A stretch of 64,000 nt of DNA from NCBI GenBank assembly GCA_038087875.1, contig CM075990.1, forward strand, positions 4,528,001 through 4,592,000, in the 5' to 3' direction. The notes under the pieces were generated by a model. That model searched no databases, was not told the origin of the DNA, and saw only the letters and a list, made by a program, of their open reading frames with translations. Within the stretch, counting starts at the first letter, position 1. The number at the start of each line of letters is the position of its first letter. The DNA is from Malacoraja senta. Taxonomy: Eukaryota. The position numbers and the translations under genes are program-made. Positions 46,955 to 55,409 of this stretch are shown here, piece after piece.

Positions 46955-46960
46955 TTTATT
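46955..46960 (-). terminator. Polyadenylation signal of the small minus-strand gene
   Basis: AATAAA on the minus strand about 85 nt after the stop codon. Confidence 0.6.
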
Positions 46961-47045
46961 CATTTAAAAGGACATTTTGTTTCTAAACGTGAGAGTTCTA
47001 GACAAACTGTAACGGCAAACATTGCCTCAAGTTGGAGATGACAGA

Positions 47046-47119
47046 TCACGTATTGAAAGGAAGATTTTTGACGACTTCAGTCCCTTTCTCTTTCAAAACG
47101 GTTGCACCCATATCAACAG
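47046..47119 (-). CDS. Small lysine-rich protein gene, coding exon 3: (A)VDMGATVLKEKGTEVVKNLPFNT-stop
   Basis: gattttcttttcag acceptor, phase 1, TGA at 47048-47046, AATAAA downstream. Confidence 0.75.
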
Positions 47120-47629
47120 CTGAAAAGAAAATCGTTCATTTGATGAAGTCAATGCACTAGTTTTGTTGTCCACTGTAACTACTGCACTTGGGCTGGAGCT
47201 GCCTGCCTCAGCATAGCATGGCTGCATTACACTGCTCCCATCCAAGATATCCTATCAACCACAGCTTCAGTTTAGGGATGGTCTGACGAAGGGTCTCAAC
47301 CCCAAATCTCACCTAATCTTTTTCACCAGAGATGCTGCCTGGCCGCTGAGTTACTCCAGCTTATTGTGTCTGGGTAGGGGATTTTAAATGCCAGGGTCGA
47401 CATATCTGAGAACTCCCAGATTGTCTGAGTCCATGGGACGGGCGGGCGTTCCCTCAGTCTTCATCCCGCTGGGCAGGTGGTGTTGGTTGCCACACACTGA
47501 GGACTATATAATTGGGAAGATGTAGAAAATGTAGAGTATGGAAACAGGTTCTTTGGCCCAAGTTGTCCACATCAACCGAGATGCCCCTTCAACACCAGTC
47601 CCACTTCCCACTTTTGGCCCACATCCCTC

Positions 47630-48160
47630 TAAACATAGAAACATAGAAAATAGGTGCAGGAGGAGGCCATTCGGCCCTTCGAGCCAGCACCACCATTCAT
47701 TGTGATCATGGCTGATCGTCCCCTATCAATAACCCGTGCCTGCCTTCTCCCCATATCCCTTGACTCCACTAGCCCCTAGAGCTCTATCTAACTCTCTCTT
47801 AAATCCATCCAGTGACTTGGCCTCCACTGCCCTCTGTGGCAAAGAATTCCATAAATTCACAACTTTCTGGGTGAAAACGTTTTTTCTCACCTCAGTCTTA
47901 AATGACCTCCCCTTTATTCTAAGACTGTGGCCCCTGGTACTGGACTCGCCCCACATTGGGAACATTTTTTCCTGCATCTGGCTTGTCCAGTCCTTTTATA
48001 ATTTTATATGTTTCTATAAGATTCCCCCTCATCCTTCTAAACTCCAGTGAATCCAAGCCTAGTCTTTTCAATCTTTCCTCATATGACAGTCCCGCCATCC
48101 CAGGGATCAATCTCGTGAACCTACGCTGCACTGGCTCGATCACAAGGATGTCCTTCCTCA
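47630..48160 (-). mobile_element. CR1 3' fragment
   Basis: RKDILVIEPVQRRFTRLIPG... Confidence 0.88.
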
Positions 48161-49569
48161 AAACCTTTCCTAGTGTTATAGTTTACTTTGGTTTGGAGAT
48201 ACAGCACGGAAGCAGGCCCTTCGGCCCATCGAGTCCGTGCTGACCAGCGATCCCCGCACGTTAACGCTATCTTACATACCCTAGGGACAATTTTGCATTT
48301 ATGCCAAGCCAATCAACCTACAAACCCATACGTCTTAGGAGTGTGGGCAGAAACCGAAGATCTCGGAGGAATCCCACGCGGTTAAAAATAGCGGGGTCGG
48401 GGGATATGGGGAGAAGGCAGGAACGGGGTACTGATTGGGGATGATCAGCCATGATCACATTTAATGGCGGTGCTGGGCTCGAAGGGCCGAATGTCCTACT
48501 CCTGCACCTATTGTCTATTGTCTATTGTCATGGGGAGAATGTACAAAATCCGTACAGACAGCACCCGTAGTCGGGATCGAACCAGGGTCTCTAGCTCTGC
48601 AACATTGTAAGGCAGCCACGCTACCACTGCACCACCGTGCCACCCTAGAGCCTTACAGCATGGGAAACAGGCCCTTTTTGGCCCAACTTGCCCAACATGT
48701 CCCATCTACACTGGTCCCACCTTGGCTACCAGTGTACAGATATAGAATAAAGGATATGACGTTTAGAGCAAGATAAACTCCAGTAAAGTCCAATTAAAGA
48801 TAGTCCAAGGGTTTCCAATGAGGTTGATGGGAGATCAGGACCGCCCACTAAACATTATCCCCTTCATGCTGTATCTGTACACGGTGGACCGTGTGTTGTC
48901 TTTCCCGCTGACTGGATAGCACGCAACCAAAAAGGTTTTCACTGCACACGTGATTTGACTAAACTAAACCAAATCAAAACTAAATTGTTCCATTCTTGGT
49001 GATACGATGGTTCAGTTGCCTGATAACAGCCGGGAAGAAACTGTCCCTGAATCTGGAGGATACTTCCTCCAGATTCAGCGTCAATACTTTCACCAAAACA
49101 ACCACCGCAAGTGAGAGGAGGGGAGGTTTGCCCCGTAACCCGGGCAACGAAGTGAGCGGATGGACGTGCGTGCGGAGGGGGTGAGATTGGACTGGGGGAG
49201 GAGAGTGGAGAAGTCAAGATGGATGAAGTTGTGCCGACCGTTGGAAATAAAGTGGTCCAGAGAGGGTAGGAAGGAAGGAGCAGATGCTGGTTTACACCGA
49301 AGATAGACACACAATGTTGGAGTAACTCAGAGGGACAGGCAGCATCTCTGGAGAGAAGGAATGGGTGACGTTTCGGGTCTTCAGACTGAGCATCAGGGGA
49401 GAGGGAAACGAGAGATGTGAAAGGTCAGGTGTGAAAACGAGAGATCAAAGAGGACAAGGCTCAAGGAAAGTGTAGAATAGATCATTGTTAGCCAGGGGAA
49501 GGTGGCAACGTACAAAGTATAACTTAATCAGGAGGACAATCAAACTAGTTGTTGAACTAGGGTGGGGGA

Positions 49570-52800: not shown

Positions 52801-52804
52801 GGCA

Positions 52805-53057
52805 TATCTATCTATCTATCTATCTATCTATCTATCTATCTATCTATCTATCTATCTATCTATCTATCTATCTATCTATCTATCTATCTATCTATCTATC
52901 TATCTATCTATCTATCTATCTATCTATCTATATCTATCTATCTATCTATCTATCTATCTATCTATCTATCTATCTATCTATCTATCTATCTATCTATCTA
53001 TCTATCTATCTATCTATCTATCTATCTATCTATCATATCTATCTATCTATCTATCTT
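52805..53057. repeat. (TATC)n microsatellite
   Basis: Seen directly. Confidence 0.98.
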
Positions 53058-54039
53058 ACCTGTCTACCTGTCTACCTGTCTAACTGTTTCTTAAACAATG
53101 GGATAGTCCCAGCCTCAATTACCTCCTCTGGCAGCTTCTTCCATACACCCACCACCCTTTGTGTGAAAAAGTTACCCCTCACATTCCTATTCAATCTTTT
53201 CCTCTGGTCCTCGATTCCCCTACTCTGGGCAAGAGACTCTGTGCATCTACCCGATCTATTCCTCTCATGATCTTATACACCTCTACAAGATCACCCTCCA
53301 TCCTCCTGCGCTCCATGGAATAGAGACCCAGCCTTTCAACCCCTCCCTATAGCTCACACCCTCTAGTCCTGGCTACATCCTCGTAAATCCTTTCTGAACC
53401 CTTACAATTTGACAATATCTTTCCTATAACATGGTGCCCCGAACCATACCACAATATTCTGAATGCGGTCTCACAAACGTCTTATACAACTGTAACATGA
53501 CCTCCCAACTTCTGTACTCAATACTCTGACTGATGAAGGCCAAAGTGTCAAAAGCCTTTTGACCACCTTATCTACCTGCGACTCGACCTTCAAGGCACCG
53601 TGCACCTGTACTCCTAGATCCCTCTGCTCTACAACACTCCCCAGAGGCCTCCCATTCACTGTGTAGTTCCTGGCCTTGTTTGACATCCCAAAACTCAGCG
53701 GGTGAGGCAGCATCCATGGAGCGAAGGAATAGGTGACGTTTCAGGTCGAGACCCGAAACGTCACCCATTCCTTCGCTCCATAGATGCTGCCTCACCCGCT
53801 GAGTTTCTCCAGCATTTTTGTCTACAGTAAAATCACCTCTGATCACTGCCGTGACATCCTCCGTAACCAACAATGCAAACCCGCCCCCCCCCCCACCCTC
53901 CTCTTGTTCCCTCACCCCTGTCTCTCCTGAAGCACCTGTTCTTACTTTACATGCATTTAAGATCAGGCATAAGAGTTCTCAGGTGAGTAAATTCAAAGCA
54001 CAGAACAGCCACACTTTGGGGTCTCTGCAGATTAATTAC

Positions 54040-54100
54040 CTTTTGCATCTGTCTTTGGTGTCCCAGCTCTGCCGGATAGCATCGATTGGATCTGGCCCAT
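54040..54100 (-). CDS. Small lysine-rich protein gene (ADIRF/FAM25-like position), coding exon 1: MGQIQSMLSGRAGTPKTDAK
   Basis: gaaATGG start context, 61 nt, donor AG|gtaatt, phase 1. Confidence 0.7.
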
Positions 54101-55409
54101 TTCTGCAACACCAGGATGTCGTTGAGGGAACCAAACAGCAGCAATGGGTCACAGCCACAGAGGGAAGCGATTCAGCTGCACTGGGATTGTGTGCTGGACT
54201 TTAAAGCAAGCTAACGCTCCACCCTAGGTTGTCCGTGTTGTGCTTGGCTTTGTGCGTGTGAGCTGGGAGCGGTACGGTGCTAACTGGAGTTGCTTGCGCA
54301 AAGAGAGGAGGATCCAGAATAGTTGACAACAGAATGAAACAAATACTCCCCTCGGGCTACAGAGGCAGCAAAACAAAGGACACACATTCCGGAGGCACGA
54401 GGAACTGCAGGTGTTGGAGTCTTGAGCAGAAACACAAAGTGCTGGAGGAACTCAGGCAACATTCAGACTGAAGACGTCACCCATCCTTTTTCTCCAGAGA
54501 TGCCGCCTGACCCGCTGAGTTACTCCAGCGCTTGTGTCTATCTCCGGTGTAAACCAGCACCTGCAGTTCTTTGTTTCCGCCATCTGTGGAGGGAATGGGT
54601 GGGTAACATTTGGGTGGGGACCCTTCTTCAGACTGATTGGAATGGAGTGGGGGGAGGGGAGGGGAGGGGAGGGGAGGGGAGGGGGCGGTGGAGTGAGCTG
54701 GAAAAGAGAGGTGGGAGCGAGACAAAGCCTGGCAAGTGATAGGTGGATACAGGTGAGGGCGGTGTGGATTGGCAGATGGGAGGAGTGAGTGCCAAAGGCG
54801 AGGGATGAAAAGGAGACATATTTGAGCTCGTCCAAGTGCATAATAAAAAAGGGAGGAAAACGTGAGGAAATGCTGGTGTTTAATTAATCAAAGGTTGCAA
54901 TGAGTCCCACTTCTTGAGCTGTAGCAATCTGTTCCCTGTAGCTATTCCCACAGCCCTGTTGGAGTCACAGGCCCTTCGGCCCAACTTGCCCATGCCGACC
55001 AAGATGCCCCATCATCATTAGTCCCACCTGCTCACATTTGGCCCAAATCCCTCTAAACTTTTCCTATCCATGTACCCATCCAAATGTCTTTTAAATGTTC
55101 ACTATAGTACCTGATGCAACTACCTCCTCTGGCAGCTCATTCCATATACCCAGCAACCTCTGTGTAGAAATATTGCCCCTCAGGTTCCGATTAAACCTTT
55201 CCCTTCTCGTCTTAAATGTATGTCCTCTGGTTTTTGATTCCCCTACTCTGGGTAAAAGACGGTGCATTCACCCTATCGATTCCCCTCATGATATTACCCA
55301 CCTCTATAAGGTCACCCCTCGGCCTCCTGCGCTCCTAGGAGTCGAGTCCTAGCCAGAACCTTCAGGTTTAAAACTGCCTGAAGAAGAAAGATCCCAACCC
55401 GAAAGGTCA

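Follow-up and report, generated by a model that had tools for sequence, protein, structure and literature searches.

A candidate three-exon gene between SNCG and GLUD1 in Malacoraja senta, probably a diverged member of the ADIRF family with a predicted myristoylated product

The window analysed here, 64,000 nucleotides of contig CM075990.1 of the cartilaginous fish Malacoraja senta, contains a candidate gene of three coding exons on the minus strand, located between the genes for gamma-synuclein (SNCG, plus strand) and GLUD1 (minus strand) and probably belonging to the ADIRF family. The coordinates of the exons and of the surrounding features are collected in Table 1. The spliced open reading frame has 198 nt (65 codons plus TGA), and both introns are of the GT-AG type and lie in phase 1; the donors read GTAATT and GTACGG and the acceptors end in CCTTCCAG and TTTTCAG. 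Introns and exons were read from genomic DNA and the splicing is predicted. The exon coordinates, splice sites, phases and protein sequence given in an initial annotation of this DNA were reproduced exactly, as were its start context and the positions of the putative polyadenylation signal and of the TATA-like element. The nearest ATG upstream of the candidate start is at 54387. Exon 3 and the 3' region are single-copy and carry no variant letters in the DNA reads of run X1, which may be the assembly's own source reads. The depth of this run was 27-29 and even across intron and exon (46700-47500 examined), and the run, being DNA, is thus uninformative on expression. The initial annotation had described the exons as non-repetitive islands, which holds except at the 3' end of exon 2, whose final 10 nt belong to a 69-nt stretch that is repeated at 80% identity. 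The orientation of the candidate, opposite to SNCG, is presumably unlike that of human ADIRF.

Table 1. Features of the candidate gene and its surroundings. Coordinates are window positions unless marked extended, which denotes locations past the window end.
Feature	Position	Strand	Remark
Exon 1 (coding)	54100-54040	-	61 nt; ATG to phase-1 donor; residues 1-20
Exon 2	50761-50699	-	63 nt; phase 1/1; lysine-rich half followed by onset of amphipathic helix
Exon 3 (coding part)	47119-47046	-	74 nt; closes with TGA
AATAAA, predicted polyadenylation signal	46960-46955	-	85 nt past candidate stop
TTTAAA, possible weak TATA-like element (predicted)	54205-54200	-	non-repeat DNA, ~100 nt before ATG
AG preceding the ATG	54104-54103	-	two bases before ATG
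Relic copy	49080-49148	-	80% identical to the exon 2/intron 2 border (10 nt of exon, 59 nt of intron)
Alternative terminal exon	46155-46076	-	phase 1; AATAAA 82 nt beyond it
SNCG exons	~29565-29607, 29698-29825, 36703-36798, ~37258-37272	+	neighbour; gene ends ~37.3-37.8 kb
Multimerin-type gene	3997-17616	-	large coiled-coil exon + EMI-type exon; MMRN2 by synteny
Assembly gap	27324-27523		200 N, just upstream of the SNCG exons found
GLUD1	stop ~73.6 kb, first exon ~95 kb (extended)	-	exon 1 at ~95,100
Transposase frame	111,246-112,076 (extended)	+	277 codons
Trypsin-type serine protease, last exon	~195,965-196,279 (extended)	+	beyond GLUD1

The candidate exons are part of neither neighbour: the stop codon of GLUD1 lies ~19.5 kb upstream of them, and SNCG is on the opposite strand and ends before they are reached. 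The position next to SNCG, which had been recognised from the start, is more closely defined as the SNCG-GLUD1 interval. The MMRN-SNC-GLUD block is ancestral in vertebrates (PMC10451939). ADIRF has been described in the SNCG-GLUD1 interval from lamprey to human, including the red stingray and the bamboo shark, and is reported there in all major vertebrate groups except lungfish (PMC13487633, published in 2026). It is a gene of three exons with phase-1 splicing (PMC13487633), so that a gene built in this way is to be expected in the interval. The gene slot was therefore known beforehand; of the candidate's sequence and its predicted membrane anchor, no description was found in the searchable open literature (closed journals and ray database annotations fall outside this scope). 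That no named gene had been recognised at first is borne out in so far as the sequence differs from published shark and ray ADIRF, but not for the position, which had already been reported for ADIRF.

The strength of the gene model was assessed in the 36.6 kb from SNCG to GLUD1, which are free of N; of the whole window, about 44% consists of sequence that recurs elsewhere in it. Of the 14 first-exon candidates listed for the interval, none but exon 1 has both Kozak positions, and its donor is joint best; exon 2 heads the 12 phase-1/1 candidates when these are ranked by helix-type composition. With thresholds tuned after the candidate was known, 3 of 300 dinucleotide shuffles yielded a complete model of three exons whose middle one has 63 nt; when any length of 45-90 nt was allowed for it, the count was 12 of 300. 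A codon-usage score, with the large neighbouring exon as training set, places each candidate exon in the top 8-13% of the stop-free background (p ~0.011 for the three jointly). The candidate is thus better than chance to a moderate degree, and this support is strengthened because the position matches the one where such a gene is expected. We infer that the candidate is transcribed and spliced, and is likely a real gene.

The protein was compared by eye with 9 of the 20 ADIRF rows in Fig. S4 of PMC13487633, without gaps and anchored at the exon junctions over 45 columns. The ADIRF junctions were deduced from the gap after human residue 20 in that figure, from the coordinates of caecilian aedc21 (66/66/87 nt, taken as codon-rounded 67/63/89) and from a boundary at residue 42 of ADIRF (PMC6964862). 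The candidate has its junctions within codons 21 and 42. Twenty residues precede the first one, as in human, chicken and one anole row, and Lys41-Ala42 stands at the second in the candidate and, given the deduced junction, in human ADIRF alike. Amniote ADIRF, which like the candidate occupies the SNCG-GLUD1 interval with three exons and phases 1/1 (PMC13487633, PMC6964862, PMC9692912), would have first two coding exons of 61 and 63 nt, the same lengths as here. The two also have in common the pattern Q-x-x-E-A-x-x-K-A-x-D across the second junction, a small size (71-76 residues in amniotes versus 65), a composition rich in Ala, Glu, Lys and Gln and the absence of Cys, Trp and His; the candidate has no Tyr either. 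The exon layout of ADIRF, as given by the initial annotation, agrees with PMC13487633 for the phases, and the codon-42 Lys-Ala junction fits human ADIRF indirectly.

The number of identities in the 45 columns was 9 for human, 11 and 9 for anole and 7 each for chicken, Xenopus and toad, where about 4 are expected from composition. The binomial P values are 0.009 for human, 0.0007 and 0.009 for anole, 0.09 for chicken and 0.13 for Xenopus; these identities are no proof of kinship, because the ADIRF rows are inter-related and helical sequences rich in Ala, Glu and Lys match by chance beyond the binomial expectation. The identities with tetrapods are concentrated around the second junction. Counted from Met1, T-x-A-K-G at residues 17-21 is common to the candidate and the stingray and bamboo shark rows, and 7 of the 11 residues at 17-27 are identical to the stingray row. 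In the bamboo shark row, 8 extra residues stand at the first junction; they look like an acceptor tract that was read through, so the gene model behind this row may be in error. Correlations of amino acid composition with seven ADIRF rows ranged from 0.58 to 0.91, Lys and Pro being higher and Ala and Gln lower in the candidate. The ADIRF-like AEDC genes of amphibians, a cluster derived from ADIRF (PMC13487633), share with the candidate the interval and the exon phases (7/45 identities with Xenopus and toad Aedc24) and set a precedent for fast divergence among ADIRF-derived genes. Unlike that cluster, the candidate is single copy and lacks a cornification-type composition rich in Cys, Gln or Gly. 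Overall, the likeness to ADIRF is suggestive. If the gene is real, its descent from the ADIRF family, as orthologue or as local duplicate, is likely.

The product begins with M-G-x-x-x-S; the motif M-G-x-x-x-[ST] is present at 39 of 4921 open ATG starts nearby. A net charge of +8 is spread over residues 11-33, and residues 34-60 show the pattern of an amphipathic helix of the 11-residue type, with a best angle of 96 degrees. The hydrophobic moment gave p 0.002 for residues 34-51 and p 0.003 at the 11-mer periodicity for residues 34-60; against shuffles, amphipathicity ranged from p 0.002 to 0.013 with window and angle, the helix windows having been picked after inspection. Ser at position 6 favours myristoylation, and anchoring to the membrane requires a second signal beside the myristate, such as a basic cluster. 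The myristoylation of Gly2 following removal of Met is established (PMC8173174); the second-signal rule also appears as a cited title in that paper. At the level of motifs, the candidate possesses the features of an N-myristoylated polybasic protein, namely Gly2, Ser/Thr at position 6 and a basic second signal. It resembles Src and MARCKS in having Gly2, Ser6 and then a basic stretch; this likeness concerns the presumed way of working and the motif, not sequence or family kinship, and the basic cluster of the candidate begins ~10 residues past Gly2. According to this scheme, Met1 would be removed to expose Gly2, which would gain a myristate; the lysine stretch would supply the second anchoring signal by binding acidic lipids, and an amphipathic helix would form from residues 34-60, either at the membrane or against a partner protein. 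The product would be a small, probably disordered protein with a predicted myristate and a predicted seat on membranes. That the anchor is actually in use, given a real gene, we put at somewhat short of an even chance. The Gly2 of the candidate has no counterpart among the 20 rows in Fig. S4 (PMC13487633), and the lysine-rich stretch is a further difference from amniote ADIRF.

The reading that we favour, and hold to be probable, is that of a three-exon ADIRF-family gene which diverged fast in this cartilaginous-fish lineage and encodes a predicted myristoylated membrane protein. Several observations weigh against it. At the level of the gene model, the looser shuffle rule, applied to the real interval, also gives an unrelated model on the plus strand, exon 3 fell short of the first, stricter acceptor threshold and passed the second only, and an alternative terminal exon also fits (Table 1); the latter is not ADIRF-like in appearance. 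No Pfam family was matched by the exons or their open frames, apart from a single hit at E 0.18. A protein search with exon 2 extended by 19 residues of intron found no homologue at 22-70 residues or longer, although the database does contain annotated shark proteins (gamma-synuclein was matched), and the exon-1 frame gave nothing meaningful among 1.84 billion representatives; its only match (E 2e-4, a tandem-repeat protein of 1176 residues) was dismissed as chance. These searches were run with exons 1 and 2 singly and are weak, the queries being short. An atlas search with the same two exons gave no usable match and weighs neither way. It could thus be that there is no gene here, but chance exon-like stretches or a decaying, unexpressed remnant of ADIRF; comparable models turn up in 1-4% of shuffled sequences and in one case on the other strand of the real interval, the coding score is modest, and the single-exon searches returned no homologue. 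We regard this as unlikely in view of the intact frame, the four splice sites, the Kozak context and the AATAAA, all found where such a layout is expected.

A second group of objections concerns the kinship with ADIRF. Stingray and bamboo shark ADIRF come from the same vertebrate group as the candidate and from the same reported position. Over exons 2-3, however, the candidate has only 2/45 identities with stingray and 4/45 with bamboo shark, at or below chance, and the value for coelacanth is also at chance level (4/38, P 0.52). The published shark and ray sequences closely resemble ADIRF of gar and zebrafish, and exon 1 of the candidate has Met alone in common with human ADIRF. Conserved motifs of stingray and bamboo shark ADIRF were not found at the candidate locus: four short motifs gave no convincing match in the 214 kb around it (a match at 58280 is bounded by stops and is not an exon), and none other of the 103 listed open AG-63-GT stretches in the interval looked ADIRF-like by eye. 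A genome-wide DNA-pattern search for one motif, tolerating a single mismatch, hit one site in 1.94 Gb (L019), which was judged a chance occurrence. Canonical shark/ray ADIRF was thus not found in the interval, and a diverged or unassembled copy may lie elsewhere. The candidate could then be a real small gene unrelated to ADIRF, the true ADIRF having been lost, moved or left unassembled. The chance-level identity with shark and ray ADIRF, the myristoyl-type start with its lysine stretch, and the known losses of ADIRF in mouse (PMC6964862) and lungfish (PMC13487633) are in keeping with this. We nevertheless consider it quite unlikely, given the exons of 61 and 63 nt, the phases 1/1, the Lys41-Ala42 junction and the above-chance identity to amniote ADIRF in a register fixed by the junctions.

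An AG two bases before the ATG further allows exon 1 to be read as a 63-nt internal exon of phase 1/1, which would abolish the Gly2 start and also counts against the favoured reading. In such a four-exon form an unseen first exon would lie upstream. The length and phase fit exactly, and a relic of the donor end of exon 2 is found in intron 2 (Table 1); this copy has lost the donor GT, was the sole duplicate detected genome-wide, and is likely the relic of a local exon-2 duplication. Amplification of exon 2 has been described in the amphibian AEDC genes (PMC13487633). Against this, the pyrimidine tract before the AG is weak (11/20) and has no branch-point match, the upstream first-exon candidates have a poor start context and are not ADIRF-like, and just 2 donors score at least 8/9 in the non-repeat DNA up to GLUD1; the four-exon form is therefore very improbable. 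Searched separately, each candidate exon matches itself alone in the genome and in the surrounding 214 kb.

The initial annotation had proposed a diverged member of an ADIRF/FAM25 family. The link to ADIRF is likely, but that to FAM25 is without support. Human FAM25 presumably lies in the same interval and encodes a small helical protein, as would be expected if the candidate were its cartilaginous-fish orthologue. However, no candidate exon matches the Pfam profile of FAM25 (PF15825) in a comparison made exon by exon and hence of low sensitivity. Over the genome this profile scored 3 candidates in a first pass and finally gave 2 places at E <=10 (L017 and L018), both below cut-off, neither at the locus and both judged chance occurrences. 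The main text of PMC13487633, as available, makes no mention of FAM25. We rate orthology to FAM25 as extremely improbable.

ADIRF itself is poorly characterised: labelled a transcription factor, it was found among heat-stable disordered proteins, and human ADIRF is predicted to be disordered (PMC9692912); it is lost in mouse (PMC6964862), and in amphibians it is the ancestor of a gene cluster (PMC13487633). A natural variant with a predicted lipid anchor would offer a simple test of whether ADIRF-family helices act on membranes, and would show that the SNCG-GLUD1 locus generates divergent small genes that sequence searches overlook. The lineage may even have lost or rebuilt the otherwise conserved shark/ray ADIRF, an ADIRF-derived protein with a newly gained myristoyl-plus-polybasic anchor taking its place; this we consider tentative and rather doubtful. 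If true, the locus was remodelled a second, independent time besides the amphibian skin cluster, which would hint that the 11-residue helix of ADIRF binds lipid surfaces. If the anchor is unused, the candidate is one further diverged ADIRF, of modest interest.

As for the neighbouring genes, the top database matches of the gamma-synuclein in the window are shark gamma-synucleins (86-90%), in agreement with the cartilaginous-fish origin first proposed for this DNA. The first coding exon of SNCG was not found by motif scans and may fall within the assembly gap listed in Table 1. The large coiled-coil exon of the multimerin-type gene has no multimerin match in Pfam. Exon 1 of GLUD1 shows a frame change near its 3' end in the assembly, possibly an assembly error. 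Beyond the window end, there is an open frame for a transposase, which we take from its motifs to be of the Tc1/mariner type, and the last exon of a trypsin-type serine protease.

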